In this document: one piece after another, positions 975 to 15,450 of the stretch
How positions within the stretch are numbered: the first letter of the stretch is position 1
Layout of the letters: every line of letters begins with the position of its first letter
Source of the DNA: a virus
Strand: one strand, 5' to 3'
UHGV virus genome: UHGV-1695118
Length of the DNA stretch: 18,953 nucleotides
Made by a program: the position numbers and the translations under genes
The notes under the pieces: model-generated
The model's input: only the letters and a program-made list of their open reading frames with translations
Told to the model about the DNA's origin: nothing
The model's database searches: none

Positions 975-1279
975 CGTGTTTTCTCCTATGGTTAGAGTGA
1001 ACGCGCGGGCGGGCATCCCATTAGCATTAGATAGCAGTGACTGACCGCTCAACAGATCCCGCCGTTGCGTGATATTTGTTTTTCGCTTCGCAGCGACACC
1101 GGATTTTTAAAGAGCTTAAGGTAAGTGCCTTTTTGTGCCTTCCGTTATCTTTTTCCTTGCGTCTTTGCAAGTATGGCCTTACCTTGTCTGCAAGTTTACA
1201 AAATGGAATTTTAAGATCAAGGCTTAAAATACACGTTTTGTGACTTGCATCAAACTTTTTGAGGTTATAGGGTAGCGAC
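975..1279. promoter_or_regulatory. Divergent promoter/operator region between the repressor gene and the leftward operon
   Basis: About 300 bp non-coding between divergent genes. Contains palindromes CTTGC-N6-GCAAG (1156-1171) and CTTG-N4-CAAG (1183-1194), a TGTGA-N6-TCAAA element (1239-1254), and possible back-to-back promoters (minus strand -35 TTGATG 1253-1248 and -10 TATTTT 1231-1226; plus strand -35 GTGACT 1240-1245). Promoter assignments are weak. Confidence 0.55.
1083..1117 (-). promoter_or_regulatory. Candidate nutR-like site (boxA GCTCTTTAAAAA plus boxB hairpin UCGCU-GCGA-AGCGA) on the leftward transcript
   Basis: The minus strand reads AAGCTCTTTAAAAATCCGGTGTCGCTGCGAAGCGAAAAAC. The boxA matches the rrn/lambda boxA consensus (GCTCTTTAA), followed 8 nt later by a 5-bp stem with a GNRA-type loop. 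Confidence 0.4.
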
Positions 1280-1927
1280 ATGAAAACAAAATGGTATGAC
1301 TTAGCAAAGCAGCTCATGCGGGCGCAGGGCATGAGCCAGGATTCACTAGCGGATCGCATGGGGATAACTAAAGGCGGCCTGTCACACTGGCTGAACGGTC
1401 GCCGCGAGCCAAATCTTGAAGATATTGCGCGGATTATGCGAGAGCTTGGTCGTCGGCAGTTCACTGTTACACATGATGGTATGGTCATTGATGATTCTGT
1501 TTCTAATACACTTCAGGCCGTGCCGCCGCGTGATTTAGGTAGTTACCCGGTTATTGACTGGAAGGACACAGTAAACAATATGGATGACGCAAGGCGTTCA
1601 GCATTACGACACGTTACGACTAGCGTTATTTGTTCAGATGACAGTTACTGGCTGGTTGCCAAAGGTGAATCAATGAACGCGCCGCAGGGGTTGAGCATCC
1701 CGGCGGGGACGATGATACTTGTTGACCCGCACGCGCCAGCTATTGACGGCAAACTGGTTATAGCCCAGCTTGAGGAAGGGCAGATACCGACGTTTAAACA
1801 GTTGATTATTGATGGAGGTCAAAGGCTTTTACGTTCGCTCAATCCGCTGTATCCGCCAATCCCTATGAATCCAGAATCAAAAATTATAGGCGTGGTGGTT
1901 GATGCGAAGATCGTAAACCTGCCATAA
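1280..1927 (+). CDS. cI: CI/c2-type phage repressor (N-terminal HTH, C-terminal S24 LexA-like autopeptidase domain)
   Basis: 215 aa. C-terminal half (SYPVIDW...GESMNAPQGLSIPAGTMILVDP...GKLVIAQLEE...KIIGVVVDAKIVNLP) is close to the remembered P22 c2 C-terminal domain, with Ser (GESM) and Lys (GKLV) catalytic residues. N-terminal HTH (SQDSLADRMGITKGGLSHWLNGRREP). Confidence 0.93.
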   Translation: MKTKWYDLAKQLMRAQGMSQDSLADRMGITKGGLSHWLNGRREPNLEDIARIMRELGRRQFTVTHDGMVIDDSVSNTLQAVPPRDLGSYPVIDWKDTVNNMDDARRSALRHVTTSVICSDDSYWLVAKGESMNAPQGLSIPAGTMILVDPHAPAIDGKLVIAQLEEGQIPTFKQLIIDGGQRLLRSLNPLYPPIPMNPESKIIGVVVDAKIVNLP

Positions 1928-1932
1928 ACATT

Positions 1933-1957
1933 AGCCGCCGGATGGCGGCTTTTCTTT
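1933..1957 (+). terminator. Rho-independent terminator after the repressor gene
   Basis: AGCCGCC-GGAT-GGCGGCT perfect 7-bp stem, 4-nt loop, then TTTCTTT, 6 nt after the repressor stop codon. Confidence 0.7.
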
Positions 1958-2050
1958 GCCTGGAAAACGCCAAAACGTAAACAGAAAACGTTATTTATTG
2001 TTTAAATATCAATAGCATATAAAATATTTTAAAAAAGTATACAAAATGGA

Positions 2051-2079
2051 TTGACTTGATGTTTTACGGGGCGTATATT
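2051..2079 (+). promoter_or_regulatory. PL-like sigma70 promoter (-35 TTGACT, 17-bp spacer, -10 TATATT)
   Basis: TTGACT at 2051-2056 and TATATT at 2074-2079 with an A/T-rich upstream tract. Located between the repressor terminator and the N-like gene. Confidence 0.6.
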
Positions 2080-2334
2080 GCGAGTCAAAGGAAGGTCGCA
2101 GGTAACAAAAGCAACTTCCTGGCACTTTAAAAATCAGGCTTAACACCTTGTCAACCGTGGAGTAACTCCCCGATGGGGGACCGAAAGCGGCACTGATAAC
2201 AAGGCGCATGGGGTGTTTAAAGCGTTACATCCCCCACGAAACCGCACGCAAGGCGACGAGTCAGCTTGCTTGGAGTGAGCAAGGTCACGCCGGGAACGGC
2301 GATGATTGCGGGATTAGTTGAAAGATGTTAAGCC

Positions 2335-2371
2335 GCTCATTAACAATCTGGTCAGCCGCTGGAAGTGCGGC
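2335..2371 (+). promoter_or_regulatory. Candidate nutL-like site (boxA GCTCATTAACAA plus boxB-like hairpin GCCGC-UGGAAGU-GCGGC)
   Basis: boxA matches rrn boxA GCTCTTTAACAA at 11 of 12 positions. A hairpin follows 8 nt downstream, about 55 nt upstream of the N-like start. Confidence 0.45.
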
Positions 2372-2426
2372 AATTAACGAAGATGATTTTTATTAATTTT
2401 CATCAAGGATATACGGAGATCAGATT

Positions 2427-2717
2427 ATGAGCGTTACAATTATATATGGCAAATGTGATAGCAAAATGAATGCCAGGGAACGCAGAAGGATAAAAAGAGA
2501 AAACGAAAGAAAATCATCACCTGCAATCAATAAAACAGACAATGTGGATAAAGCTATTCGATTTGCAAACGAGGAAAGATGCAAACCAAATAGCATTAAA
2601 GAACGTCGCAAAGGATCAGTAAAATGGTATACGGAAAATGAAAGCGGCAGCTACTACCACGCAACGCAACCACGCCATTTAGGGGAAAAACCCCTGGATA
2701 AAGTCCGCTACCATTAA
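2427..2717 (+). CDS. N: N-like transcription antitermination protein (P22 gene 24 type)
   Basis: 96 aa. N-terminus MSVTIIYGKCDSKMNARERRRIKRENERK carries an arginine-rich motif and resembles the remembered P22 gp24 start. GGAG lies 8 nt upstream of the ATG. Sits downstream of the repressor, PL-like promoter and nut-like site. Confidence 0.8.
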   Translation: MSVTIIYGKCDSKMNARERRRIKRENERKSSPAINKTDNVDKAIRFANEERCKPNSIKERRKGSVKWYTENESGSYYHATQPRHLGEKPLDKVRYH

Positions 2718-2747
2718 TACAAAATGTAAACATTCGGAGGTGACATT

Positions 2748-2870
2748 ATGGTTATTCTGGCGCTTCAATTCAAACTGGCGGTAGCGGAAATGCTTCATGA
2801 TGCCGAAATGTGGAGCGCCGCGAATAAAGCCTTATACATAGTGTTAACAGCGAAGGAGATTAAAGGGTGA
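2748..2870 (+). CDS. Hypothetical small protein (40 aa), translationally coupled to erf
   Basis: ATG at 2748 with GGAGG 7 nt upstream. Its stop TGA overlaps the GTG start of erf (GTGA). Below the ORF-track size cutoff. Confidence 0.4.
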   Translation: MVILALQFKLAVAEMLHDAEMWSAANKALYIVLTAKEIKG

Positions 2871-3508
2871 AAACAGAGTTACATAAAAAACTATGGACGA
2901 TTCAGCAAACGCTGAATGCGCCGAAAAATCAGCGTAATAACTTCGGTGGCTATAATTACAGGTCTGCGGAGGATATTTTAGAGGCGGTTAAACCACTGCT
3001 TCAAAATATCACACTGACTGTTAGTGATGAAATTGTCCTGATCGGCAATCGCTATTATGTGAAAGCAACGGCGACGCTAAGCGACGGTGAAGATGTAATA
3101 GCGGTAACTGCTTATGCCAGGGAGGAAGAAAGCAAGAAGGGTATGGACGCCAGCCAGCTAACAGGAGCAACATCAAGTTACGCGCGTAAATATGCTTTGA
3201 ACGGTTTATTCTGCATAGATGATGCTCGCGATCCTGATACTGATGCTTACGCGAAGCAGACAGGCCTGCAGCAGCGACAACAGAAAAACCCACCAAAACA
3301 ACAACCGCAGCAGAAGAAAGCGCCGCCAAATCCTGATGAAGTATTAGCACGTTTCTGTGATGCAGCAGCGAAAGCGCAGGACGCTAACAAGCTGCGTGAA
3401 ATATTTGGCAAATGCTGGAAATTACTACCGGAAGGATCGGAACATCGAATCAAGGCAAAAGATGTTTATGACATCCGGGTAGCAGAGCTTAACGGGGAGA
3501 TGTGTTAA
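2867..3508 (+). CDS. erf: Erf-family single-strand annealing recombinase
   Basis: 213 aa with GTG start and AAGGAG 8 nt upstream. Segments LNAPKNQ, YRSAEDILEAVKPLL, SDEIVLIGNRYYVKATAT and GATSSYARKY match remembered P22 Erf. Gln/Pro-rich C-terminal linker. Confidence 0.9.
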   Translation: MKTELHKKLWTIQQTLNAPKNQRNNFGGYNYRSAEDILEAVKPLLQNITLTVSDEIVLIGNRYYVKATATLSDGEDVIAVTAYAREEESKKGMDASQLTGATSSYARKYALNGLFCIDDARDPDTDAYAKQTGLQQRQQKNPPKQQPQQKKAPPNPDEVLARFCDAAAKAQDANKLREIFGKCWKLLPEGSEHRIKAKDVYDIRVAELNGEMC

Positions 3509-3927
3509 TGAGTTTAAATTCAATCACGCTGGGCGGGAATATCGGTAATGATATGGAGGTTCGCTACACACAAAACGGGAAAGCGATTGGTAGTTTTCCG
3601 TTAGCTGTAACGAATGGCTACGGCGATAATAAGCGGGTAATGTGGATCACTTGCCTGGTATTTGGCGAGCGTGCGGAAAAATTGGCGCCACATATCCGTA
3701 AGGGTGGAAAAATAGTGGTAAGCGGTCGCCTGGATGTTCGGCAATATGACCGGAACGACGGCACGAAGGGGACTGCGGTAGAAGTGGCGGTTAATGAATT
3801 TGAATTCATGAATGTTAACCAACAAGGCCAGCAGCAAGGACAGCAGCAGAAAGCGCCGCCGCAGCAGCAGAATAATAACGGGAATAATCCGCCTCAGATG
3901 GACTTCGACGACGATATTCCTTTTTAG
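3508..3927 (+). CDS. ssb: Single-stranded DNA-binding protein
   Basis: 139 aa from ATG 3508, which overlaps the erf stop (TAATG), with GGGGAGA upstream. OB-fold-like core, Gln-rich linker and the acidic C-terminal tip DFDDDIPF typical of bacterial and phage SSB. Confidence 0.93.
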   Translation: MSLNSITLGGNIGNDMEVRYTQNGKAIGSFPLAVTNGYGDNKRVMWITCLVFGERAEKLAPHIRKGGKIVVSGRLDVRQYDRNDGTKGTAVEVAVNEFEFMNVNQQGQQQGQQQKAPPQQQNNNGNNPPQMDFDDDIPF

Positions 3928-3943
3928 AATCAATGTGTTAGCT

Positions 3944-4222
3944 ATGAGTGATTATCTAAAACCGCCACCGCAACCACGAACAAAAGAGCAAGTATTAAAA
4001 GAAGCCCGCGATCGATTTGATCGCGGGCTTTTTTTATGCGGCACGGCAGCGGATCGAATGGCGAAAAGATTTAGTGACCTGTACGCGAAGCAAATCTGGT
4101 TTGACAACTGGCGAGCGAGTTCTTACCCGCTACAGAAAACTGATGATATGCAGTGGCCTGAATATGTTGATCCACGAATGCGCAAATATCGCGGGCGTAT
4201 GGGCAAGGTTATTAACGATTAA
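3944..4222 (+). CDS. Hypothetical protein (92 aa)
   Basis: In-frame ATG downstream of ssb within ORF-track frame 3812..4222; the upstream part of that frame overlaps ssb. No clear SD. Confidence 0.5.
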   Translation: MSDYLKPPPQPRTKEQVLKEARDRFDRGLFLCGTAADRMAKRFSDLYAKQIWFDNWRASSYPLQKTDDMQWPEYVDPRMRKYRGRMGKVIND

Positions 4223-4234
4223 TGAGGTATTACC

Positions 4235-4486
4235 ATGACAGCTACAACATTAAGCGAAAATAACGGGCGCGGTTTTCAGGGGACTGCGGAAACCTCAGAC
4301 GATGGTGATGTATTTGTCGAATTCGGTGGCGGTAACTATGAATTCGAAACGTCGGCGGGCTGGCACGATAAATGGCCTTTCCCGACGCGCAAGGAATTAA
4401 GCGATCGAAAAACATTTGGCGAAGATGCCGAACGCCTGGCGAATAATAAATGGATGGATAAATTTATTGCGGAGGCTGAAAAATGA
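4235..4486 (+). CDS. Hypothetical protein (83 aa)
   Basis: ORF-track ORF; GAGG 7 nt upstream of the ATG. Confidence 0.6.
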   Translation: MTATTLSENNGRGFQGTAETSDDGDVFVEFGGGNYEFETSAGWHDKWPFPTRKELSDRKTFGEDAERLANNKWMDKFIAEAEK

Positions 4487-4596
4487 GTTTTGCAAAAATT
4501 GCAGCATTGGCTGCGGCGGTGGCGATCGCGGCGCTATATCTTAGCTTATCGCTTTATATTACGGTGGCGATCATCAAGCTGATTACAACTATGTGA
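4483..4596 (+). CDS. Small hydrophobic peptide (37 aa, predicted single transmembrane helix)
   Basis: ATG overlaps the upstream stop (ATGA); GGAGG 7 nt upstream. Sequence MSFAKIAALAAAVAIAALYLSLSLYITVAIIKLITTM. Below the ORF-track cutoff. Confidence 0.5.
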   Translation: MSFAKIAALAAAVAIAALYLSLSLYITVAIIKLITTM

Positions 4597-4603
4597 GGCA
4601 ATC

Positions 4604-4726
4604 ATGAGAGTCAGTAAGGATATTGTGACGGTCGCGTTTTGCGTTATTTGTTTCCTGTTTGCGGTTGTGTTTTGTGGCGCACTTGCGGCAGTGATTAGCT
4701 TTATTGGTAAGGGGGTGATGTTATGA
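4604..4726 (+). CDS. Small hydrophobic peptide (40 aa, predicted transmembrane)
   Basis: ATG 4604 with GTGAGG upstream. Sequence MRVSKDIVTVAFCVICFLFAVVFCGALAAVISFIGKGVML. Stop overlaps the next start (ATGA). Confidence 0.5.
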   Translation: MRVSKDIVTVAFCVICFLFAVVFCGALAAVISFIGKGVML

Positions 4727-4995
4727 CTCTGTGGGATGCAAAAGAAGGTGATCTCGTTGTCTTGCCAGCATATCGTAGTGATCTCGGGCTGGTCGTACTG
4801 AATAAAACATGTAGCGACATTCAACGCCCGATCCTGGTTAGATACTTAGACGGCACGATGATCGAACCGCGTTTCTTCGACAAAGTTGAACTGAAGGCCC
4901 GCAATGTTCGCGTTAAGCCTTTCCGGGCTTATGTTGAAAATCACTGGCGTAAATTGTTCGCCGGACTGAATGGGATGTTCGGCGTATGGCTATAA
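4723..4995 (+). CDS. Hypothetical protein (90 aa)
   Basis: ORF-track ORF, translationally coupled to the upstream peptide gene. Confidence 0.55.
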   Translation: MTLWDAKEGDLVVLPAYRSDLGLVVLNKTCSDIQRPILVRYLDGTMIEPRFFDKVELKARNVRVKPFRAYVENHWRKLFAGLNGMFGVWL

Positions 4996-5177
4996 AATTA
5001 GTGAAGGTTAAACACCTGAAAGGCGGTGAAAGATTAATGTCATGGTGGGGACATGAATTTATTGCTACTGCCTTTCATTTCGGCCTAGGTGGTCAAGTAA
5101 CAATATTTGATGAAGATTACGACGAGGTGGGGCAATGGCATCTTGAGCAATATGTCGAGGTGTTAAATGAAAATTAA
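4986..5177 (+). CDS. Hypothetical protein (63 aa)
   Basis: ORF-track ORF overlapping the upstream stop; no clear SD. Confidence 0.4.
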   Translation: MAIKLVKVKHLKGGERLMSWWGHEFIATAFHFGLGGQVTIFDEDYDEVGQWHLEQYVEVLNEN

Positions 5178-5499
5178 ATTCCACAAAGCGTATGACGCTA
5201 ACACAAACAAGCTATCACTATTTATCGAATTCGAACGCCGGATCGTGGTAGCGCCTTGGTCGCGGCGCTTTAATGACGCCGCCGGGCGTAGACAATTCGC
5301 GGTCGATATGCTGTTACGCGGCTGCGGCCTTATGCGTCCGCTATCTGATTTAAAACGAATGATGCCGGGATCGTTCGGTCAGATTGATGAAATAGAAATA
5401 AGCCCGGAAGAACTGAAACGTGAGCGTGATTTATTCCTTTCAAGCGAAGGAAACCCGTTTAATTCAGAAACTGAAATGAAATGGCATCATCCACTATAA
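5167..5499 (+). CDS. Hypothetical protein (110 aa)
   Basis: ORF-track ORF; GAGGTG 4 nt upstream of the ATG. Confidence 0.55.
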   Translation: MKIKFHKAYDANTNKLSLFIEFERRIVVAPWSRRFNDAAGRRQFAVDMLLRGCGLMRPLSDLKRMMPGSFGQIDEIEISPEELKRERDLFLSSEGNPFNSETEMKWHHPL

Positions 5500-5510
5500 G
5501 GGTAAATATT

Positions 5511-6131
5511 ATGAACAATATCAAAACGGCTTATTCACTCGGCAGCGAAGGCATGTTAATTACTCGCTACACAGAGGACGCGAGCTTTCACGAAGTGGTA
5601 ACTAAGGATTATCACGAAGTTTTAAAAGATATGGAAGCAGGAGTGTATGACAGTGACTTAAATCTGGCGCTACAGATTGTTGATATTATGATGGATGCAT
5701 CAATCCGCGATTACGTGTCTTTAAGCATGGAAGAAAAAACATCGGTAGCGCGTTATGTGTTCTGCCTCACTTTCGTAAGACGCATGGAGGAGGAATTCGG
5801 ACGCGCACCAGTGCCGGAAGATGTTGATCCGCTCGCGTTCGGAAGTGCTGTTATTTTCCCGTTGAACAAGGATCGGCTTGGCAGTGTTTCACTGCATTCT
5901 ATGCGCGCCCTGATGAAAAAGGTCTTTGAGGTTAAGATGTTGCAGAAATTTATTGAGGAAGGACACGAAGAAGTGAACGTTAAGGCGTTTATTCCGGTGC
6001 TTTACGGAAATTTTGTTGGCGATGATATGCGCGCTAATGAATTAGGCGTACAGGCGGCTATAGCTACGCTTAACGAAGCAATGAAAAGTGCACAGCCTAT
6101 TCATGAACAGGAAAAACGTGTACTGCATTAA
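5511..6131 (+). CDS. Hypothetical protein (206 aa; alternative start 5481)
   Basis: ORF-track frame 5481..6131. ATG 5511 is preferred because AAGGG lies 8 nt upstream. No recognisable motif. Confidence 0.6.
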   Translation: MNNIKTAYSLGSEGMLITRYTEDASFHEVVTKDYHEVLKDMEAGVYDSDLNLALQIVDIMMDASIRDYVSLSMEEKTSVARYVFCLTFVRRMEEEFGRAPVPEDVDPLAFGSAVIFPLNKDRLGSVSLHSMRALMKKVFEVKMLQKFIEEGHEEVNVKAFIPVLYGNFVGDDMRANELGVQAAIATLNEAMKSAQPIHEQEKRVLH

Positions 6132-6133
6132 CA

Positions 6134-6153
6134 GCGTGATTGCGATCACATAA
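6134..6153. promoter_or_regulatory. Palindromic element GCGTGAT-TGCG-ATCACATAA (copy 1)
   Basis: Inverted repeat GTGAT-N4-ATCAC read directly. Nearly identical to the element at 9714-9733. Fits a CRP-like TGTGA-N6-TCACA pattern at 9 of 10 positions. Confidence 0.5.
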
Positions 6154-6230
6154 ATATACATTTTGTATTGTGATTGCATATCCGTTTTGTAAGCCGAAAT
6201 CAAAAGGTTTACGGTGCGGAGGAAAACAAG

Positions 6231-6449
6231 ATGGCCCGCGAATTAATGCTTTATTGTGTTGAGGGTGGCGTAGGTAGTAATGCCTATGTCGCCGGGAAAG
6301 GCTATCCAGCCGATGAAGTGCTTTCTAATATGCACTTCCGGGAAAATGAAAGCCGGGTGTCTGTGTGGAAACGGTGCATTGATGGTATTGAGGTTGTAAG
6401 TATCGAACGGTATTTAGGCACGTTTGATTACGGTGTTATTGAGGCTTAA
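6231..6449 (+). CDS. Hypothetical protein (72 aa)
   Basis: ATG 6231 within ORF-track frame 6174..6449; GGAGG 8 nt upstream. Confidence 0.55.
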   Translation: MARELMLYCVEGGVGSNAYVAGKGYPADEVLSNMHFRENESRVSVWKRCIDGIEVVSIERYLGTFDYGVIEA

Positions 6450-6451
6450 TT

Positions 6452-6544: not shown

Positions 6545-6547
6545 GGC

Positions 6548-6935: not shown

Positions 6936-6936
6936 A

Positions 6937-7164: not shown

Positions 7165-7165
7165 A

Positions 7166-8453: not shown

Positions 8454-8937
8454 CAGGTTATTAGCCTGCGTTTATGTCGCCGTTTTTGTGATCATCAATC
8501 TTATTGTTAATCATTGCGGCCCGTGGGTAATTCCGATCACCACGGTAGCCGCCGTGTGTGTCAATATGATGATCCGTGACCTCCTGTTATATGACGGCGG
8601 CCTGAAATGGTCGGCTACAACATGCGCCGCCGCTGGCGCAATCACGGTGCTGATAAATTACGACGCCGGAATGGTGGCGATCGCGTCATTCGTTGCGGTT
8701 GTTTCCGGTGCACTTATTTCTGGCGGCGTTTACCGGGTTTTGCCTGGTGGCTTTGATTCTAAACGTTGGCCTGCAAATATAGCGTCCGCCATTGGTGATG
8801 CGTTAATTTTTCCTACGCTATCGTTTATGGCGTTTATGCCGGAAATATCAGCTATGCAATTCATCTCAAAAATGGCAGCGGTAACGGTGATCACCATCAT
8901 TATGCGCCGCTATTTCACGTTTGAGGGTAGAAAATGA
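8434..8937 (+). CDS. Multi-pass membrane protein, possibly VUT/YhhQ-family (queuosine-precursor transporter-like)
   Basis: 167 aa from ATG 8434 within ORF-track frame 8392..8937. About 4-5 hydrophobic helices. Segment KRWPANIASAIGDALIFPTLSF resembles the remembered YhhQ segment RRWWLAPTASTLFGNVSDTLAFF. The family call is tentative. Confidence 0.35.
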   Translation: MERVTIDRLLACVYVAVFVIINLIVNHCGPWVIPITTVAAVCVNMMIRDLLLYDGGLKWSATTCAAAGAITVLINYDAGMVAIASFVAVVSGALISGGVYRVLPGGFDSKRWPANIASAIGDALIFPTLSFMAFMPEISAMQFISKMAAVTVITIIMRRYFTFEGRK

Positions 8938-9692
8938 GCAGGGCTAAACATTGGTTAAATAATTGGCTTAGAAGTTGGGTGGTGTGGTCGCTGTACGACG
9001 GCAGCGGGTACGCCGTTAAAGATTGGGCGGAAGCTGGATATAAGTGCTATTGCTTCAACTATGACGGCGCAAATCACGGAGATTATGAAGGCGTTAAAAT
9101 CATTCATCCAAATATTGAATACGTTAACGTCTGGATTGATAGCCATTTCCTGGTAATGTTCTCCCCTGAATTGTCTGTTTATCCAGAGCCTGACATTATC
9201 CTGGGCTTTCCTCCATGCGACGATCTCGCTGTGTCAGGCGCTCGCTGGTTCGTTGATAAATACAGGAAAGATCCTTGTTTTCAGAATAGGGCGGCAAGAA
9301 ACGCAATGTTGGTTGAATCTCTGGCTAACATGTATAACGTGCCGTGGATGGTGGAGAATCCTGTTGGTGTGCTGTCAACGCTATGGCGTAAACCGGATTT
9401 TATCTTCAATCCTTGCGCTTACGGTGGCTACCTGCCGGAAGATGACAAGCATCCTGCTTTCCCTGATGTTTACCCACCGCGCGACGCGTACACGAAGAAA
9501 ACTTGCATATGGTGCGGCAACGGATTCAGGCAGCCGCTTTTTAGACCTGTAGATCTTAACTCTGGTGATAACCCTGGGTGGGCGAAAACCGGAGGCAGGA
9601 CGAAACGAACAAAGATGATCCGCTCACTAACACCGCGTGGCTTTGCCCGTGCTGTATTCCTGGCTAACCATGACCGCGTTTTATCGGACTGA
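8934..9692 (+). CDS. Compact C5-cytosine methyltransferase-like protein
   Basis: 252 aa. ATG overlaps the upstream stop (ATGA). C5-MTase motifs occur in canonical order and spacing: motif I LYDGSG (about aa 20), motif IV GFPPCDDLAVSG with the Pro-Cys catalytic dyad (about aa 92), motif VI MVENPVG (about aa 130). Also carries CIWCGNGF. Short for this family. Confidence 0.5.
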   Translation: MSRAKHWLNNWLRSWVVWSLYDGSGYAVKDWAEAGYKCYCFNYDGANHGDYEGVKIIHPNIEYVNVWIDSHFLVMFSPELSVYPEPDIILGFPPCDDLAVSGARWFVDKYRKDPCFQNRAARNAMLVESLANMYNVPWMVENPVGVLSTLWRKPDFIFNPCAYGGYLPEDDKHPAFPDVYPPRDAYTKKTCIWCGNGFRQPLFRPVDLNSGDNPGWAKTGGRTKRTKMIRSLTPRGFARAVFLANHDRVLSD

Positions 9693-9713
9693 AGTTTACA
9701 AAATGGCGTCATT

Positions 9714-9733
9714 GCGTGATATGGATCACATAA
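9714..9733. promoter_or_regulatory. Palindromic element GCGTGAT-ATGG-ATCACATAA (copy 2)
   Basis: Shares GCGTGAT and ATCACATAA with the element at 6134-6153. Lies in the intergenic region upstream of the nin genes. A weak candidate promoter lies just downstream (-35 TTGTTC 9748-9753, -10 TATACT 9770-9775). Confidence 0.5.
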
Positions 9734-9851
9734 TGGCGCTTTTCGCCTTGTTCTGGTGTATCCATTTTGTATACTTCAAGCAAACAAAATGCTCTTTAAA
9801 AATCCGGCAGCGCTGAAATGCGTAGAAATCACCTGAAAAGGAGAGAGCATT

Positions 9852-10028
9852 ATGTCTTTTGATGATTACCAATGGCATGACGACTATGAACGAGAAAGCG
9901 TTATGCGTGCAATGTGCAATGTATGCAGCACGAAGAAAGGAGGCTGTAACGAGTGCAACGAATGCTTAGAACATTGGCTAAGGGCCGGACACGCCGAAAG
10001 GCTGAACGAAACAGAGAATCAAAAATAA
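9852..10028 (+). CDS. ninF: NinF-like small Cys-rich protein (58 aa)
   Basis: ATG 9852 with AAGGAGAG upstream. Sequence MSFDDYQWHDDYERESVMRAMCNVCSTKKGGCNECNECLEHWLRAGHAERLNETENQK. Positioned immediately upstream of ninG. Below the ORF-track cutoff; the NinF assignment is by position and size. Confidence 0.45.
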   Translation: MSFDDYQWHDDYERESVMRAMCNVCSTKKGGCNECNECLEHWLRAGHAERLNETENQK

Positions 10029-10042
10029 TCGGGGTGGTTTTT

Positions 10043-10648
10043 ATGCAAAACCCTAAAAAACCCATAAGACGCCGTTGCAAATGCTGCGGCGTTTTTTTTG
10101 AGCCTAAATATCACAATCAAACGTGGTGCAGCGATGAATGTCTGGAAGAACTGAAGTTTGACCAGCTATGCCGCGACCGTGAGAAGGCTATGAAGGCTAT
10201 GGAGCGGAAGAAACGCCGTGATAGCCAGAGGGAAGAACGCAACCGGAAGCGTAAACAGTTAAATCCGCGTAGTTATTGGATCAAACAAGTTCAAAATGTA
10301 TTTAACGCCTATATTCGCGAACGTGACGCGCGCTTGCCGTGTATATCTTGCGGGACTTACTACGGTGAGCAATGCGGGTGGGATGCAGGTCATTACAGGA
10401 CGGTAGCCGCCGCCGGACACCTTCGCTTCAACGAGGATAATTGCCATAAGCAATGTAGGCACTGCAACCAGACACTAGACGGCAACATCGGAGGGTATCG
10501 CCCGGCGCTGATTCGAAAAATTGGCCTCGCCAGGGTGGTAGCTCTGGAGAACAACAACGATACGCATAAATGGACGATTGCAGAATGTAAGGAGCTAATA
10601 AACATCTATCAGGCGAAATTGGACGCCTTAAGGAGAAAGGCAGCATGA
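10043..10648 (+). CDS. ninG: NinG / Rap-family recombination protein
   Basis: 201 aa from the internal ATG of ORF-track frame 9953..10648. Cys-rich N-terminus (RRCKCCGVFFEP...WCSDEC) and core (PRSYWIKQ...NAYIRERDARLPCISCG...WDAGHYRT...LRFNEDNCHKQC...) match remembered lambda NinG. Confidence 0.85.
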   Translation: MQNPKKPIRRRCKCCGVFFEPKYHNQTWCSDECLEELKFDQLCRDREKAMKAMERKKRRDSQREERNRKRKQLNPRSYWIKQVQNVFNAYIRERDARLPCISCGTYYGEQCGWDAGHYRTVAAAGHLRFNEDNCHKQCRHCNQTLDGNIGGYRPALIRKIGLARVVALENNNDTHKWTIAECKELINIYQAKLDALRRKAA

Positions 10649-11052
10649 ATGAATATTCTTTTAGCCTGCCTTACCCGCCATCGAATAATCGCTATTACCG
10701 ACATTCGCGCGGTTTTCACTATATCAGCAAAGTGGGGAAGGAATACAGGGAACAAGTAAGAGACATCATCGAGCTATTAAATTTAAATATTAACCTACCT
10801 TGCCGACTGGCAATTGCCATTTACGCCGCGCCGCCGGATAACCGGATCAGAGATCTGGATAATATCCCTAAATGCCTTTTTGACAGCCTTACTTATGCCG
10901 GATTCTGGAGGGATGACGGGCAAATTGACTCAATAAAAATTGTCCGCTGCCGGAAGGTAAAAGGCGGACGCTTGTTTATTAAGATCCGCGAACGCGGCGA
11001 CCTACTACCGGATATTGACGAATACGCGACTAATATGTGGGGTGAGCAATGA
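10645..11052 (+). CDS. rusA: RusA-family Holliday-junction resolvase
   Basis: 135 aa. N-terminus YSFSLPYPPSNNRYYRH, plus DNRIRDLDN and AGFWRDD segments, match the RusA family. ATG overlaps the ninG stop. Confidence 0.88.
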   Translation: MNEYSFSLPYPPSNNRYYRHSRGFHYISKVGKEYREQVRDIIELLNLNINLPCRLAIAIYAAPPDNRIRDLDNIPKCLFDSLTYAGFWRDDGQIDSIKIVRCRKVKGGRLFIKIRERGDLLPDIDEYATNMWGEQ

Positions 11053-11231
11053 AAAACGAAGTTAAAGATCTGCAAATAGATATTCAGCGCGACGAGCGTG
11101 ATTTAGAGACGGTCCGACAAATCCAGGCTTTCCACATGCGCGAATTACTTGCGCTGAAAGAGTTCGAAAGAAAGCTGGTGCAATCCATTTCTGATCGTAA
11201 ACGGCTGGCGGCGCGTTATGAGGGCAAATAA
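11049..11231 (+). CDS. Small charged coiled-coil protein (60 aa)
   Basis: ORF-track ORF translationally coupled on both sides (ATGA with rusA, TAATG with Q). Confidence 0.5.
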   Translation: MKNEVKDLQIDIQRDERDLETVRQIQAFHMRELLALKEFERKLVQSISDRKRLAARYEGK

Positions 11232-11959
11232 TGAATTTAGAATCCATTCTAAAATTCCACTTTCCTAAATCACCGCGATTATCTGACGAAAGCCGGGGCA
11301 CGTCCCCGGACGCTCTTAATACGACGGATGCGCTAACCGCTGCGGGTATGGCGCAATCGCGCGTAGAGCTTGGATATAGCGCTTTTTTAGGGAAGATGGA
11401 ACTATCACAAGCCGAAAAACATAGGGCCGTAGTTTTGCTTACAGAGCGTTTAAGGGCTATGGCGAAAGATTACGAATACGTGATGGAGTTAAACGAGGAT
11501 CAGCGCAATGGACTTATTATTCTTGTTGCCGTTTTCGCGTTTCGGGATTATTGCCAGAGTGCGGCGACCGAAAAAGTTTGCCCTAAGTGCGGCGGCCACG
11601 GGCATTTACCAAATCCATATTGCAAATACACATCGACAATTTGTTCGCGGTGCAACGGCAAAGGCTACGTTAAAAACCATTGCCAACGTTGCAAGGGGCG
11701 CGGAGAAGTACCGGATAAAGCAGCCAGTGAAGCGGCGGAAATGCCAGTATTCAAAACGTGCCAGCATTGCGGCGGGCGCGGGTACTCGCGTTTCCCGGTA
11801 GATCTCGTCCGGCAGGCCGTTAACCAGCTTGTTTTCCCGGTAAGCAGATCAACATGGTGGAAGAAATACCGGGTTTTCTATGAAGACGCCATAGCGGAGC
11901 TATTCAAAGAAGAGGCCCGCGCGGAAAGCGAAATTAAACGAGTGACACGGGGTGAATAA
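11231..11959 (+). CDS. Q: Late-gene antitermination protein Q (lambda Q type)
   Basis: 242 aa. N-terminus MNLESILKFHFPKSPRLSDESRGTSPDALNTTDALTAAGMAQSR parallels the remembered lambda Q start. Four CxxCxGxG zinc-finger motifs. Confidence 0.88.
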   Translation: MNLESILKFHFPKSPRLSDESRGTSPDALNTTDALTAAGMAQSRVELGYSAFLGKMELSQAEKHRAVVLLTERLRAMAKDYEYVMELNEDQRNGLIILVAVFAFRDYCQSAATEKVCPKCGGHGHLPNPYCKYTSTICSRCNGKGYVKNHCQRCKGRGEVPDKAASEAAEMPVFKTCQHCGGRGYSRFPVDLVRQAVNQLVFPVSRSTWWKKYRVFYEDAIAELFKEEARAESEIKRVTRGE

Positions 11960-12063
11960 TGGACAAGTTAGAAATAAACGATCAGTTTGCCGTTATCTTA
12001 TTCGAAGATAAAACAGGCGGCGCATGTTGTAAAAAAAAGTCACTGGTGCTGAAGCGCGCTTAA
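11959..12063 (+). CDS. Possible 34-aa ORF coupled to Q (TAATG)
   Basis: ATG overlaps the Q stop. Sequence MDKLEINDQFAVILFEDKTGGACCKKKSLVLKRA. No independent support. Confidence 0.2.
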   Translation: MDKLEINDQFAVILFEDKTGGACCKKKSLVLKRA

Positions 12064-12147
12064 TATTGGGTATGGCAAGCGCGTTAAATGATGGCGAATT
12101 GCCCGCCATCCCTGTTAAGCCAGTGCATATCTATAAAAGGGGCGACA

Positions 12148-12495
12148 ATGAAAATGATTAATATCGGTTGGTTATATTGCGAAAACTGCGACGACGACGG
12201 CATGGTTGTTAAGACTGAAAAAGGCTGCGGCCTCTTTCTGTATCAAGGCGATAAGTTTGTTTGTCCGCGATGCGGTGGTAGTGGTGAGATAGAAATTATT
12301 GAAGATAACGCCGTAGCGCAAGAACCAGAGCGCATTGTCCTTGATGAAAAAATAAAAATTCATCCTGATTTATTACAGCAAATTATCGATCACGTATCGG
12401 CAGCCGCAATCTACGGCGATAACAATTATCAGCGTGAAATGAACGTCAAACGTGCGATTGAGCAGTATTTCGAAGGTGACGACAATGAAGCCTAA
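12148..12495 (+). CDS. Zinc-ribbon protein (115 aa, two CxxC pairs)
   Basis: ATG 12148 with AAGGGG upstream, within ORF-track frame 12088..12495. Motifs YCENCDDDG and CPRCGGSG. Confidence 0.6.
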   Translation: MKMINIGWLYCENCDDDGMVVKTEKGCGLFLYQGDKFVCPRCGGSGEIEIIEDNAVAQEPERIVLDEKIKIHPDLLQQIIDHVSAAAIYGDNNYQREMNVKRAIEQYFEGDDNEA

Positions 12496-12754
12496 ATTAA
12501 AAGAGCATGAATTTAGGGATCTCATAAACGGAATAACCGATAAAGCTAGGATGTACTCAAATGCGCAACAGTTAAGGGCGGTTATAGTTACGGAATTAAT
12601 GAAATACATTGAGCCATGCGGACCAGGCGACGAAATGACTATGGATAAGGCCATCAAGCGCCGTTCGGCTGATTGGTCGGTTAGTAACACTGGATTAACC
12701 GGATACATTGAAGGCTATAACGACTGTTTACAGGATCATGGCAATGAAAAGTAA
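12485..12754 (+). CDS. Hypothetical protein (89 aa)
   Basis: ATG 12485 with AAGGTG upstream, within ORF-track frame 12452..12754. Confidence 0.55.
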   Translation: MKPKLKEHEFRDLINGITDKARMYSNAQQLRAVIVTELMKYIEPCGPGDEMTMDKAIKRRSADWSVSNTGLTGYIEGYNDCLQDHGNEK

Positions 12755-12959
12755 CCGCAAGCGCCTTGTAAGGGCATACGATAAAGCATTAAAGGCTTTT
12801 GATGATCTGCGACACAATAAGCGCCAGCGCCGCAAATGGGCGCGTATGCTTGTTTATGAGTGGCATTATTCTGATGCTTTCATGGAAAGTGCGCCGCTAT
12901 TAACACAGGAACAAGCCGACGAAGTAGCTAACGATAACGTTTATTATATGATGTGGTGA
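12744..12959 (+). CDS. Hypothetical basic protein (71 aa)
   Basis: ATG 12744 with AGGA 8 nt upstream, within ORF-track frame 12708..12959. Confidence 0.5.
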   Translation: MKSNRKRLVRAYDKALKAFDDLRHNKRQRRKWARMLVYEWHYSDAFMESAPLLTQEQADEVANDNVYYMMW

Positions 12960-12963
12960 TAAT

Positions 12964-13329
12964 ATGCAAATAATCATTGATTACCTTTGCCACGCTGCAA
13001 ATACGCTTTTCGGTTTTTATCAGCAACCACTCCTGAAAGAATGGGACGAAATGCTTAATGACATCCTCGACAAAGGGTTAATAATGGAATTCGGGGAGCT
13101 AACAATCAAATTTAATTACGAAGGCAAAGAATATGACATATGGGTAGGCAACAGATGGTATGCATACGGGCATATTTATTCAATTGGCGGTAAATACATT
13201 AAACGAAGTCAGGAATTTAGACCGCGCTTCCGCACAATGCGACGACTGCATGACCTGCATATGAAGATATTTGGAGATCAGGAGGCACGGGAATTATTCA
13301 AAATTTACGGGGGTAAATCATGGAGCTAA
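12964..13329 (+). CDS. Hypothetical protein (121 aa)
   Basis: ORF-track ORF; GGTGA upstream. Confidence 0.6.
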   Translation: MQIIIDYLCHAANTLFGFYQQPLLKEWDEMLNDILDKGLIMEFGELTIKFNYEGKEYDIWVGNRWYAYGHIYSIGGKYIKRSQEFRPRFRTMRRLHDLHMKIFGDQEARELFKIYGGKSWS

Positions 13330-13550
13330 AAATCTGGCAGGCTATCGACGTAGTTGATAATGAATTAACAATGTTTGCCACTGACGGAAAGCGCGTGGTT
13401 ATCGCTACATGGACGCATAACCATGATGATATTGTTTTTCGTCGCAAGGCTGCGGAGTGGCTTTTCTCTGACAACGGCTACACGATGAATATCATGCAGC
13501 TTTCCAGAATGAAGGATGAAAAGCTGGTTGATAGTTACACAACTGCATAG
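13320..13550 (+). CDS. Hypothetical protein (76 aa)
   Basis: ORF-track ORF; GGGGG 6 nt upstream. Confidence 0.55.
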   Translation: MELKIWQAIDVVDNELTMFATDGKRVVIATWTHNHDDIVFRRKAAEWLFSDNGYTMNIMQLSRMKDEKLVDSYTTA

Positions 13551-13560
13551 TGGGGCAAAT

Positions 13561-13794
13561 ATGTGTATCTATGAACACAAGCGGGATAAAACCCGCTTTT
13601 TTGTTCGTGCTGGCGTGGCTTACCAGTATCACGACTGCGGATATATCGAGGCGCTTGCTTACGATCTGGATTTCGAACAAGAAAAAGAATGGTTTGATTT
13701 CAAGATTTACCGGAAGCGCAAGCCAACGCGTGACGAACGACACGCTATCCGGGACTTTTTAATCAGCATAGACCGCTGGGAGGCAGACGAATGA
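13561..13794 (+). CDS. Hypothetical protein (77 aa)
   Basis: ATG 13561 with GTGGGG upstream, within ORF-track frame 13516..13794. Confidence 0.5.
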   Translation: MCIYEHKRDKTRFFVRAGVAYQYHDCGYIEALAYDLDFEQEKEWFDFKIYRKRKPTRDERHAIRDFLISIDRWEADE

Positions 13795-14018
13795 AAGTTA
13801 AATTCTTGCACGATCACGGATACCCGTCATTGAAACAGGTTGTTGGTAAGGTCGTTAATGTCGTTCATAGCGATGATATTGCTTGCATGATTAATGGTGC
13901 TGATCTCATTGCTGCTGGTGCTGATGACCATTACATCAATCCGGCGTGGTCGTATACGTTCAGCCTGGGCGACTTCGTGGGCGATAAGGGGCGCGGGCTG
14001 CAAGTAGTCGAGGGTTAA
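13791..14018 (+). CDS. Hypothetical protein (75 aa), possible distant member of the tandem paralog family
   Basis: ORF-track ORF with ATGA coupling. Weak similarity to the downstream paralogs (ADDHYINPAWSY versus the shared YI-DD-G-W motif). Confidence 0.5.
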   Translation: MKVKFLHDHGYPSLKQVVGKVVNVVHSDDIACMINGADLIAAGADDHYINPAWSYTFSLGDFVGDKGRGLQVVEG

Positions 14019-14022
14019 TATT

Positions 14023-14271
14023 ATGGACGTTTACGAGGATGTTTACCTGGCACCTTCATCTTATAGCTTTTATTTTCTGATAAATGGAAAGGCTTATAGA
14101 TGCGATTCTGACGGGGTGAGAGAAGAAAAGCTGTTTTGCACTAAAGGATACCTGGATGATTTGGTTTTTGCCGGGATATTTCGTAAACGCCCGGCTAACC
14201 TGGAAGAAGAAATGTTGATTGAGGTAATTAAAAATGAAAATAAGGGTAAGTTATTTCCGGGCGAAAGATAA
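14023..14271 (+). CDS. Hypothetical protein (82 aa)
   Basis: ORF-track ORF; GAGGG upstream. Confidence 0.55.
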   Translation: MDVYEDVYLAPSSYSFYFLINGKAYRCDSDGVREEKLFCTKGYLDDLVFAGIFRKRPANLEEEMLIEVIKNENKGKLFPGER

Positions 14272-14485
14272 GGCAACAGGAAAGCAGATTGCGATCCTGG
14301 TTAACGAGGCGCAGTACATGTTTGTCCTTCAGCCGTGGTGTGTTGTAGATCTTAACGACAACTGTCGCCGCCACGCTGCGCGAAGTGCTGTTGGTATGAA
14401 AGGCTGGCAACCGCGCGACATGGAAAAATATTGTGAATGGAAATTGGTGGCAAAATACACGGTCGATTATAAAGGGGTTTTCTGA
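14234..14485 (+). CDS. Hypothetical protein (83 aa)
   Basis: ORF-track ORF overlapping the previous gene by 38 nt; GAGG 9 nt upstream. Confidence 0.5.
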   Translation: MKIRVSYFRAKDKATGKQIAILVNEAQYMFVLQPWCVVDLNDNCRRHAARSAVGMKGWQPRDMEKYCEWKLVAKYTVDYKGVF

Positions 14486-14709
14486 TGTTTGTAAAATGTA
14501 TAAAGTCTCGTTTCCCTAATCTTTTTGTGGTTGATGAGATTTACGACATAGAAACGCTAATAAGCAGAACTAACGATATTCAGTACATTTATGATGAAGA
14601 TGGCGATCCGTGGTTTTTTTATAACGATCTCAATGGTAGCGGATTCGTTGATGGCGTTGGCGGTAATGGTGTGCCAGTTGCGCTATTTATAAATGCAAAT
14701 AAGGAATGA
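14485..14709 (+). CDS. Tandem paralog family member A (74 aa)
   Basis: Sequence MFVKCIKSRFPNLFVVDEIYDIETLISRTNDIQYIYDEDGDPWFFY aligns with the three following ORFs. ATG overlaps the upstream stop. Confidence 0.6.
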   Translation: MFVKCIKSRFPNLFVVDEIYDIETLISRTNDIQYIYDEDGDPWFFYNDLNGSGFVDGVGGNGVPVALFINANKE

Positions 14710-14714
14710 ATATC

Positions 14715-14921
14715 ATGTATGTTAGATGCACTGAATCAAAATCATCATGCTTTGAGGTTGGCGGAATATATACCGTAGCTCACCTGACTGGTGATGAACT
14801 TAACACCCAATACATTAAAGACGACCACGGAGACGCGTGGCGCTATTGGGATTGTTACGCGCGTGGACACGTTGCCAGCCAGTTCAGTACGGAACCGATC
14901 GCGCGTTTTGTTAAGTGGTGA
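14715..14921 (+). CDS. Tandem paralog family member B (68 aa)
   Basis: Sequence MYVRCTESKSSCFEVGGIYTVAHLTGDELNTQYIKDDHGDAWRYW. ATG 14715 with AAGGA 9 nt upstream, within ORF-track frame 14706..14921. Confidence 0.6.
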   Translation: MYVRCTESKSSCFEVGGIYTVAHLTGDELNTQYIKDDHGDAWRYWDCYARGHVASQFSTEPIARFVKW

Positions 14922-14930
14922 GGTAGTGTT

Positions 14931-15170
14931 ATGAGACAGAATCAGAGATACCAGTGCACATACTCACGATGCAGCGCGTTTTTTAAGAATGGCAAGATCT
15001 ACGAAGTCGGAGCGGCATTGGTTGACGCAAAGGATCAGGAATATATTCACGCCATTACTGACGACCAGGGCCAGTTATGGCGATTTTATAAGATGGGATG
15101 TGGAACTGCGCTTGTTTATGCGCGGGCTTGTGGTGGTGCTTTTGCTGCGTTTTCGTATGTAGGTGCATAA
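14931..15170 (+). CDS. Tandem paralog family member C (79 aa)
   Basis: Segment YQCTYSRCSAFFKNGKIYEVGAALVDAKDQEYIHAITDDQGQLWRFY. GAGGT upstream. Confidence 0.6.
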   Translation: MRQNQRYQCTYSRCSAFFKNGKIYEVGAALVDAKDQEYIHAITDDQGQLWRFYKMGCGTALVYARACGGAFAAFSYVGA

Positions 15171-15171
15171 A

Positions 15172-15390
15172 ATGATTTTAACGTGTAACGAATCGAGATT
15201 AGGTTGTTTTGAGGAAGGAGCACAGTACACGGCTGAAAAACCGATGGGATTGTCTCCTAAATTTCCGTTTATCGTCGTGACTGACACTTACGGTCACTTA
15301 TGGTATGCAGGGCCGCTAGGCGGTATTGGTCGTTATGTTGTCCGTAGTTTGGATGGGGCGATGAAGGTTACTTTTACGGAAGAAACGTAA
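15172..15390 (+). CDS. Tandem paralog family member D (72 aa)
   Basis: Sequence MILTCNESRLGCFEEGAQYTAEKPMGLSPKFPFIVVTDTYGHLWYAG. ATG 15172 within ORF-track frame 15163..15390 (which uses a GTG start). Confidence 0.55.
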   Translation: MILTCNESRLGCFEEGAQYTAEKPMGLSPKFPFIVVTDTYGHLWYAGPLGGIGRYVVRSLDGAMKVTFTEET

Positions 15391-15416
15391 ATGTGATCTG
15401 TATTACAAGGTTTACG

Positions 15417-15450
15417 AAATGGCATTGTTTCGGCAGTGCCATTTTGTTAT
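15417..15450 (+). terminator. Rho-independent terminator-like hairpin after the paralog array
   Basis: AAATGGCATTG-TTTCGG-CAGTGCCATTT: 11-bp stem with one G-U pair and a 6-nt loop, followed by TGTTAT. Confidence 0.5.

Follow-up and report, generated by a model that had tools for sequence, protein, structure and literature searches.

Immunity across the mEpimmI group of coliphages is conferred by a CI-like repressor, Rep021, as has been shown experimentally (PMC11893012). According to the same study, the group encodes an N-like antiterminator, Gp17, and possesses three nut sites, namely nutL, which precedes the repressor gene, nutR1, which precedes gp17, and nutR2, which follows the cytosine methyltransferase gene; no operators are named, the authors remarking only that Rep021 'may' recognise different operator sequences. 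Rep021 is without the lambda-type Ala-Gly cleavage site and its lysogens are not inducible by ultraviolet (UV) light, while mEpimmI phages, for which a new family was proposed, were reported to be as common as lambdoid phages in human gut isolates (PMC11893012). The present analysis concerns a short motif that recurs in UHGV-1695118, a viral sequence of 18,953 nucleotides, the whole of which is referred to below as the window. Most probably, the motif represents the most strongly conserved portion of the DNA site recognised by the CI-like repressor of the prophage, here called Rep and encoded at 1280-1927. Operators of the mEpimmI repressor were previously undescribed; the proposed ones are an ordinary kind of element in an unusual, dispersed layout.

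The window belongs to a mEp021-type (mEpimmI) E. coli prophage and exhibits 87-89% identity to the mEpimmI coliphages mEp021, mEp010, mEp044, mEp554, mEp515, mEp013 and MagusPhagus; prophages matching it are present in 35 of 5,426 complete E. coli genomes. The regulatory genes to which the text refers are the following, rep having lambda CI as its best solved relative (3BDN, E = 1e-20).

1280-1927, plus strand: rep, CI-like repressor with HTH_3 and Peptidase_S24 domains, homologue of Rep021 and proposed binding protein
2427-2717: N-like gene
11231-11959: Q-like gene

No Cro-like gene was recognisable beside rep in the window.

Comparison with described repressor-operator systems

Along with the sites of Salmonella phage ST64T / phage L c2, the nearest relatives of the window sites are the three annotated 'putative operators' of the Stx2 phage VT2-Sakai, AAATACAATATGTACTT, AAATACACATTGTGCAT and CAGTACAGAGCGTAATA. 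The VT2-Sakai/ST64T systems share with the window the half-site (A/T)ATACA, the 3-bp centre and a dyad of 15-17 bp; the N-terminal domains of their repressors are homologous to that of Rep (45-54% identity over the first ~70 residues), and the middle operator of their triplet ends in TGTG, as does the window site at 1230-1244. Their layout is nevertheless classical, a tripartite set in the cro-cI interval being accompanied by a further set beyond cI, and the degenerate TGG right half carried by most sites of the window is seen in 0 of 42 sites there.

Lambda CI exhibits the same two-domain repressor design as Rep. Lambda operators combine one consensus with one non-consensus half, lie over -10 and -35 elements at a distance of ~24 bp from each other, and include a site at about -42 of the repressor promoter; unlike those of the window, they are built on the half-site TATCACCGC and are confined to two operator regions. 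The dispersed, asymmetric operators of P1 C1 and of mycobacteriophage L5/L1 gp71 ('stoperators') resemble the window in that many sites, many of them asymmetric, are scattered in short intergenic spaces, and some sites are likewise placed within operons, either immediately behind a stop codon or close in front of a ribosome-binding site (examples are 2716-2730 and, in relatives, a site upstream of the helicase gene). The P1 C1 and L5 gp71 repressors are unrelated proteins that bind as monomers, and L5 sites keep one orientation to transcription, whereas the window contains both orientations at single promoters (9695 plus and 9759 minus; 15411 plus and 15436 minus) together with a CI-type repressor, and perfect palindromes occur in it and in mEp021 (6155-6169, and 52945 in mEp021); what the systems have in common is dispersal alone. 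How symmetric lambdoid operators differ from multiple, asymmetric ones is set out in the abstract of PMC1934351. The sequence strings of the motif were found in no relevant paper among the texts searched, and the telomere-phage and 933W repressor papers contained nothing bearing on this site type.

A family of intergenic motif copies

A reading made earlier from the letters of the window alone (the sequence-only reading) had described a 15-mer at four module boundaries. Its sequences and coordinates are correct for the exact copies of AAGTTTACAAAATGG at 1192-1206 and 9692-9706 and for AGGTTTACGAAATGG at 15408-15422; the variant it placed at 2038-2050 is real, yet represents only the core of a full 15-mer, AAGTATACAAAATGG, which occupies 2035-2049 with one mismatch. 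Instead of four copies, the window contains five strong ones (at most two mismatches) plus about eight or nine weaker sites. A fifth copy had been overlooked; it reads AAGTATACAAAATGG on the minus strand (9762-9776) and is separated by 55 bp from the 9692 copy, to which it has the inverse orientation. The 15408 copy has a partial inverted partner, also overlooked, with the core ACAAAATGG at 15439-15447 on the minus strand.

That an exactly repeated 15-mer is not expected by chance, as had been argued, carries little weight, a direct or inverted exact 15-mer repeat being present in 41 of 100 shuffles. The significance stems from the family of copies and from their locations, not from the single exact repeat. 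Matches with at most three mismatches number five in the window compared to 1.0 expected, a count reached by one of 200 shuffles, while the 9-mer ACAAAATGG occurs six times (0.31 expected) and TWTACRWWWYGG likewise six times (0.27 expected), in both cases with 0 of 200 shuffles reaching the count. All strong copies are intergenic, as the sequence-only reading had it, the first base of the 9692 copy being also the final stop-codon base of the open reading frame (ORF) 8934-9692. Equal frequency in coding DNA, named earlier as an outcome that would refute the proposal, was assessed on the complete mEp021 genome and was not observed: in a genome of which 12.4% is non-coding, 10 of 11 matches with at most three mismatches (P = 8e-9) and 20 of 23 matches to the core pattern (P = 8e-16) are non-coding.

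The full site is a 15-bp pseudo-dyad of the form T(A/T)TAC(A/G), three A/T-rich bp and (T/C)G(G/T)NNN, i.e., TWTACR-N3-YGKNNN. Viewed in this way, the 15-mer noticed earlier consists of a flank, AAG, a strong half-site, T(T/A)TACA (TWTACA), an AAA centre, and a TGG with which a degenerate second half starts; CCATTTTG is the portion of the motif that lies outside the promoter hexamers. In the outer 6 bp, four to five pairs are symmetric at 218, 1195, 1283, 2038, 2716, 6155 and 9759, and only one to three at 1230, 1967, 6179, 9695, 9725, 15411 and 15436; perfect palindromes of the same half-site are present in mEp021. Centre-to-centre distances are 24 bp (6162/6186), 25 bp (15418/15443 and 2045/2070) and 35 bp (1202/1237), and in the region around nutR2 (the R2 region) 30 and 34 bp (9702/9732/9766), most sites thus being paired at 24-35 bp; spacings of approximately two to three helical turns would permit pairwise cooperativity.

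Conservation was assessed over twelve genomes, comprising the window, mEp010, the whole of mEp021 and nine prophages. The motif is present in 12 of 12 genomes at the leftward promoter PL, at the rightward promoter PR1 and at both R2 positions, and in 10 of 12 at the 15408 position; further conserved sites are located in the 6132-6230 intergenic region and, in relatives and outside the window, upstream of the helicase gene. Clusters of sites number at least six in the window, ~8 in the sister phage L013 (see below) and ~11 in mEp021, where the sites at 6064, 7722, 37648-37675, 42049, 43921-43956 and 52945-52975 include some perfect palindromes, e.g., TATACATTTTGTATA. The mEp021 sites in the tail region are positioned at the promoter ends of leftward accessory cassettes, including an antirepressor-like cassette and a lipoprotein exclusion gene, and two further mEp021 sites lie within the replication operon.

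Site type and the DNA-binding domain of the repressor

A protein search with Rep identified the sister phage L013, which has the same gene order as the window and whose repressor is 55% identical overall and nearly identical at residues 1-62, the segment GITKGGLSHWLNGRREPN being identical. The first leftward gene of L013 is unrelated to that of the window; the motif is nevertheless kept at its counterparts of PL, PR1, the R2 position and the internal intergenic region, and also after the N-like gene. Repressors less similar to Rep (39-51% identity), but of the same helix-turn-helix (HTH) type, were found in lambdoid-style cro/cI modules of Citrobacter, Enterobacter, Serratia and metagenomic prophages. 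The cro-cI regions of these foreign loci contain triplets of 15-bp dyads, (A/T)ATACR-N3-YGTAT(A/T), ~33 and 26 bp apart, and a second set of dyads is located on the far (downstream) side of the repressor genes.

A symmetric weight matrix trained solely on the foreign sites was scanned over 18,939 positions of the window. The top four positions, 6155 (20.4 bits), 2716 (16.8), 9759 (16.2) and 2038 (15.7), are all intergenic, in a window of which only 10% is intergenic, and are followed by 1195, 6179 and 1230 at 9-10.5 bits. The same matrix returned three sites each, at 13-19 bits and within the cro-cI region, for loci outside the training set, namely those of a Tatumella prophage (L024), Erwinia phage Midgardsormr38 and Salmonella phage ST64T. 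For VT2-Sakai, also outside the training set, the depositors had annotated three features as 'putative operator', and it is with these that the three best matches coincide (16.7, 9.5 and 6.5 bits). A negative control, in whose repressor a similar C-terminal domain is combined with an HTH of the P22 C2 type, yielded no site above 4.8 bits and contained P22-type repeats instead. As judged from these scans, the site type follows the DNA-binding domain of the repressor across unrelated phages, and changes when that domain changes.

Furthermore, the right half YGG was found only in conjunction with GGL in the repressor HTH, where it is present in 10 of 21 sites (window, L013, L016 and L022), as opposed to 0 of 42 sites where the repressor has GAV, GAI or GGI (seven loci; Fisher P = 3e-6), and this covariation is a hint that supports direct recognition by Rep. 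The earlier proposal that the motif is a binding site for a phage regulator is supported, the same operator family lying beside this HTH type in unrelated phages and overlapping predicted early promoters. As a rule of practical use, (A/T)(A/T)TACR-N3-YG(T/G) should find repressor-controlled promoters in the mEpimmI group and in the ST64T / VT2-Sakai repressor family.

Putative operators and predicted promoters in the window

The putative operators and their associated promoters are listed below; all promoters are sequence predictions, not mapped starts, and bit scores refer to the foreign-trained matrix.

1192-1209, plus strand: motif copy (1192-1206) with operator 1195-1209, TTTACA-AAA-TGGAAT, over the PL -10; 9-10.5 bits
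1215-1220, minus strand: -35 (TTGATC) of the predicted leftward promoter PL; 16-bp spacer; -10 TAAACT, the reverse complement of 1193-1198
1230-1244, plus strand: operator TACACG-TTT-TGTGAC, 9.1 bits, AATACA-TTT-TGTGAC in relatives; 35 bp from 1195-1209
1245-1250 and 1268-1273: -35 (TTGCAT) and -10 (TAGGGT) of the predicted rep promoter
1283-1297, plus strand: weak operator-like AAAACA-AAA-TGGTAT, rep codons 2-6, just after the predicted leaderless start; 4.9 bits
1967-1981, minus strand: auxiliary site TTTACG-TTT-TGGCGT, just after the rep terminator; 0.1 bits
2035-2052, plus strand: motif copy (2035-2049) with operator 2038-2052, TATACA-AAA-TGGATT, its last 2 bp on the PR1 -35; 15.7 bits, rank 4
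2051-2079, plus strand: predicted promoter PR1, TTGACT, 17-bp spacer, TATATT; 10 of 12 consensus positions, the second-best consensus match in the window
2063-2077: weak dyad TTTACG-GGG-CGTATA over the PR1 -10, 25 bp from the 2038 site; left half varies among relatives
2716-2730: near-palindromic operator AATACA-AAA-TGTAAA directly after the N-like gene; 16.8 bits, rank 2
6155-6169: operator TATACA-TTT-TGTATT of the perfect palindrome class, 24 bp from 6179-6193; 20.4 bits, rank 1
6179-6193, minus strand: operator CTTACA-AAA-CGGATA over the -10 TAAGCC (6190-6195) of a predicted internal promoter; 9.8 bits
9692-9709, plus strand: motif copy (9692-9706) with operator 9695-9709, TTTACA-AAA-TGGCGT, the distal R2 site, ~80 bp upstream of the predicted start
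9725-9739, plus strand: doubtful middle site ATCACA-TAA-TGGCGC; -2.8 bits
9748-9753 and 9770-9775, plus strand: -35 (TTGTTC) and -10 (TATACT) of the predicted promoter PR2, just upstream of nutR2
9759-9776, minus strand: fifth motif copy (9762-9776) with operator 9759-9773, TATACA-AAA-TGGATA, over the PR2 -10; 16.2 bits, rank 3
9791-9802, plus strand: boxA-like GCTCTTTAAAAA of nutR2, ~9 nt after the predicted PR2 start
15408-15425, plus strand: motif copy (15408-15422) with operator 15411-15425, TTTACG-AAA-TGGCAT, ending on the first base of a -35
15425-15453: predicted promoter of ORF 15489-15767, -35 TTGTTT (15425-15430), 17-bp spacer, extended -10 TGtTATAAA (15445-15453)
15436-15453, minus strand: inverted partner with operator 15436-15450, ATAACA-AAA-TGGCAC, 25 bp from 15411-15425 and overlapping the extended -10

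Predicted transcription starts fall near 1186 (minus strand), 1280, 2086, 6202, 9782 and 15460. The rep gene is located between PL and PR1, in the same direction as PR1, and sites overlap predicted -10 or -35 elements on both sides of it, i.e., the PL -10, the PR1 -35, the PR2 -10 and those of two internal promoters. On the left side, operator 1195-1209 is conserved in all twelve genomes, its position 10 varying between A, G and T, and the conserved PL -35 reads TTGACC in relatives. Centred near -43 of the predicted rep promoter, site 1230-1244 directly adjoins the -35 of that promoter and belongs to the same 'TGTG(T/A)C' middle-operator type as is found in the heterologous prophages; a gapped motif copy considered at 1232-1250 was dropped in favour of this middle operator, overlapped by a CRP-like palindrome. 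From the position of the rep promoter -10, transcription would start at or beside the ATG at 1280, giving a leaderless rep mRNA; lambda cI transcribed from PRM is likewise leaderless. The conservation of 1283-1297 is uninformative because this site is coding.

On the right side, the block CCAAAACGTAAAC at the 1967-1981 site, 71 bp upstream of operator 2038-2052, is invariant in 12 of 12 genomes. The promoter beside the 2035 copy, which had been labelled PL-like, points rightward; it precedes the N-like gene and corresponds to the promoter that is named PR1 in mEp021. Site 2716-2730 is also invariant in all twelve genomes, and L013 has a palindrome at the same place. Within the R2 region, 9695-9709 is conserved even where the upstream gene is a different one (prophage L009), 9725-9739 shares bases with the right arm of a CRP-like palindrome and with a hairpin that precedes TTTT, and 9759-9773 is the best dyad among the copies (five of six pairs). 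At the far end, operators 15411-15425 and 15436-15450 bracket the -35, and the 'terminator stem' previously seen there is better read as these two inverted operators, the hairpin having no U-tract.

Paralogous cassettes and CRP-like sites

The PL region (1079-1228, minus strand) and the R2 region (9740-9827, plus strand; in full 9692-9830) are paralogous cassettes, in each of which a CRP-like site and a -35 are accompanied by an operator over the -10 and by an identical boxA-like 12-mer, GCTCTTTAAAAA, which in the PL region occupies 1104-1115 on the minus strand (nutL). This arrangement suggests that nutR2 has its own promoter, which may be why the group has three nut sites. A hairpin at 9704-9745 (GGCGTCATTGCGTGAT...ATCACATAATGGCGC), situated between the inverted motif copies and followed by TTTT, contains the CRP-like palindrome of this region; a predicted terminator is annotated at this hairpin in the mEp021 record, and it could end the upstream operon just before PR2.

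The CRP palindrome TGTGA-N6-TCACA is matched at nine of ten positions only four times in the window, at 1239-1254, 6135-6150, 9715-9730 and 15392-15407, compared to an average of 0.87 in shuffles. Each of these sites is centred 25.5-26.5 bp upstream of a predicted -35 (those of PL, the 6190 promoter, PR2 and the 15448 promoter), i.e., at about -61, the position of class I activation. The half-sites are conserved among relatives and the centres vary, and some genomes have a 15392 copy that is weaker or one base longer. The copy at 1239 runs into an operator half-site. The motif itself does not match TGTGA-N6-TCACA, and the CRP-like sites are separate, neighbouring elements. If they are real, the state of cyclic AMP would feed directly into lytic gene expression through four promoters.

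Proposed mode of repression

Drawing on the site positions and on established knowledge of lambda CI and P22 C2, we propose that Rep dimers bind the sites via the N-terminal HTH and, in the lysogen, keep RNA polymerase off the internal promoters and off the three early operons that carry nut sites. Rep on 1195-1209 would cover the -10 and spacer of PL, the leftward promoter of the replication operon; on 2038-2052, and perhaps also on 2063-2077, it would cover the -35 and perhaps the -10 of PR1, which is predicted to drive the N-like gene; on 9759-9773 it would cover the -10 of the promoter just upstream of nutR2, and on 6155-6193 and 15411-15450 the two internal promoters. Partner sites at 24-25 bp or 30-35 bp could allow pairwise cooperative binding via the C-terminal domain, as for lambda CI. 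Finally, Rep at 1230-1244, about -43 of the rep promoter, may autoregulate rep; lambda CI activates its own promoter from a position at about -42/-43.

A more tentative extension, which we regard as possible rather than probable, is that Rep acts as a genome-wide silencer directly controlling ~11 promoter regions, unlike the two-locus switch of lambda. These regions would comprise the two internal promoters, those driving the leftward accessory cassettes embedded among the tail genes, and those of three distinct early operons that have a promoter, an operator and a nut site apiece. A Rep-controlled promoter of its own for nutR2, paralogous to PL, would then explain the third nut site. With the operator sequence in hand, the immunity switch and the predicted third early promoter upstream of nutR2 become testable, as does the reason why the lysogens, although stably immune, are not UV-inducible.

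Assessment of alternative explanations

Several observations weigh against recognition of the motif by Rep. The sites at 9695, 15411, 1967 and 15436 have one good half-site only and score 0-3.5 bits on the symmetric foreign matrix, so that weak dimer binding is expected there unless this Rep prefers TGG. Every promoter but PR1 is a weak consensus match, and the half-sites double as -35-like (TTTACA) or -10-like (TAAACT, TATACT) hexamers, which may explain part of their conservation. Within the mEp group, columns belonging to operators are 0.95 conserved compared to 0.91 for the rest of the regulatory regions, and in the PL region they are less conserved than the rest (0.88 versus 0.94); footprinting within the group is not discriminating because the regulatory regions are ~91% conserved throughout. 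The covariation of GGL with YGG rests on about two independent clades, and the sites at the promoter end of the mEp021 lipoprotein exclusion gene, which is expected to be on in lysogens, are awkward for simple repression.

The asymmetry of the motif, unlike the preference of a symmetric dimer, also speaks against Rep and for another protein, be it a Cro-like lytic repressor alone, some other phage DNA-binding protein or a host factor (Fis, ArcA, CRP), CRP-like palindromes do adjoin four sites, and the motif bears a loose likeness to the degenerate consensus sequences of Fis and ArcA; such a binder is nonetheless very improbable. In the phages compared, no candidate protein but the Rep HTH was observed to accompany the motif, the site type changes along with the repressor HTH, and the motif is unlike the CRP palindrome, while the consensus sequences of TyrR, ArcA and Fis gave no convincing match when compared by eye. 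A host factor would, moreover, leave the sites beside repressor genes in six host genera unexplained. The small leftward HTH protein, put forward by the sequence-only reading as a binder and considered here as a Cro-like one, was rejected: the first leftward gene is wholly different in two phages sharing the motif, its product in the window matches the winged-helix domain of O-like initiators, and it is a poor candidate because an unrelated gene replaces it in the sister phage that keeps the motif. More improbable still is the absence of any dedicated regulator, the repeats being core promoter and upstream promoter (UP) element sequence copied with duplicated promoter cassettes. The PL and PR2 regions are clearly paralogous, and the motif overlaps predicted hexamers, providing a -10 (TAAACT/TATACT) when read one way and, when read the other way, a -35-like TTTACA with an A-tract at about -43; the PR1 A-tract sits where a proximal UP subsite would. 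Yet some copies are without a promoter role, i.e., 9695-9709 (~80 bp before the predicted start), 1967-1981 (~110 bp before PR1) and 2716-2730, which directly follows a stop codon. In the two paralogous cassettes, the sequence separating the elements has diverged and the motif has not; nor would promoter duplication account for the recurrence of these dyads next to the repressor genes of unrelated phages.

That the inverted copies pair as RNA hairpin arms, to terminate or process transcripts where operons end, is scarcely probable, even though RNA folds of 9685-9785 (-37.5 kcal/mol, z = -5.6) and 15400-15462 (-20.8 kcal/mol, z = -3.8) are stable relative to background and predicted terminators are annotated there in the deposited records of mEp010 and mEp021. 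The sequence directly after the 15408-15453 hairpin is UGUUAUAAAG, with no U-tract; a terminator scan lists neither this hairpin nor the outer arms 9692-9776, and within the latter stretch only the inner hairpin (~9704-9745), not the motif arms, precedes a T-run. Copies 1192, 2035, 2716 and 6155 are without such a partner, which restricts this explanation to two loci, and, provided that the promoters have been predicted correctly, transcription would start downstream of the promoter-proximal copies. At gathering thresholds, Rfam yielded no match anywhere in the window. Nor do the copies resemble nut sites, the motif being without boxA (CGCTCTTTA-like) or boxB and upstream of the predicted starts; boxA-like 12-mers are instead located 15-80 bp downstream of motif copies, at 1104-1115 (reverse complement), 2122-2133 and 9791-9802. 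Least probable of all is that the copies are linker or boundary sequences promoting module exchange between related phages, with no regulatory role. The 15408 cassette is indeed flanked by at least two upstream and three downstream gene kinds across genomes, and the gene upstream of 9692 is either a methyltransferase or an HNH endonuclease, but promoter/operator regions are expected at module junctions anyway, and the dyad structure, the 24-25 bp pairing and the link to the repressor HTH type would be left unexplained. The 'conserved boundary sequence' of the sequence-only reading may stand as a side effect, in that the 15408 cassette is conserved while its flanking genes differ between genomes. 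The inverted copies were also considered as terminal repeats of a short mobile element, which was rejected, the content between the repeats being wholly different in 9692-9776 and 15408-15453.

Other features of the window

The small leftward gene 717-1052 (minus strand) is the first of the leftward operon and had the appearance of an 'HTH / MarR-like' gene. Its product matches the N-terminal ~90 residues, the winged-helix part, of O-like replication initiation proteins (phrog_4617, E = 7e-22), and the replication initiator appears to be split over two genes. Inside the replication gene, the stretch 218-323 has the look of a replication origin, with four TTCTAA repeats at 262-285 and three TCATGACC-type iterons at 283-323 with 11-bp spacing. 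An operator-like palindrome, TACACG-AAG-TGTATA (218-232, 11.5 bits), adjoins the iterons and repeats of this stretch and is kept in the seven fetched relatives that have the same replication-gene allele.

Between PR1 and the N-like gene, a non-coding leader of ~350 nt (2080-2426) is largely conserved among relatives, with prophage L011 diverging beyond ~2100; it carries the boxA-like GCACTTTAAAAA (2122-2133) and G+C-rich hairpins, and has no Rfam match. Further downstream, a candidate late promoter at 17625-17653 (TTGTAG, 17 bp, TAAAAT) is followed by a strong terminator at 17681-17699 with a T-run, before the holin gene at 17724. If this promoter is the late one, the ~5.6 kb of small genes after the Q-like gene (12088-17617) would lie upstream of it and not in the late operon.

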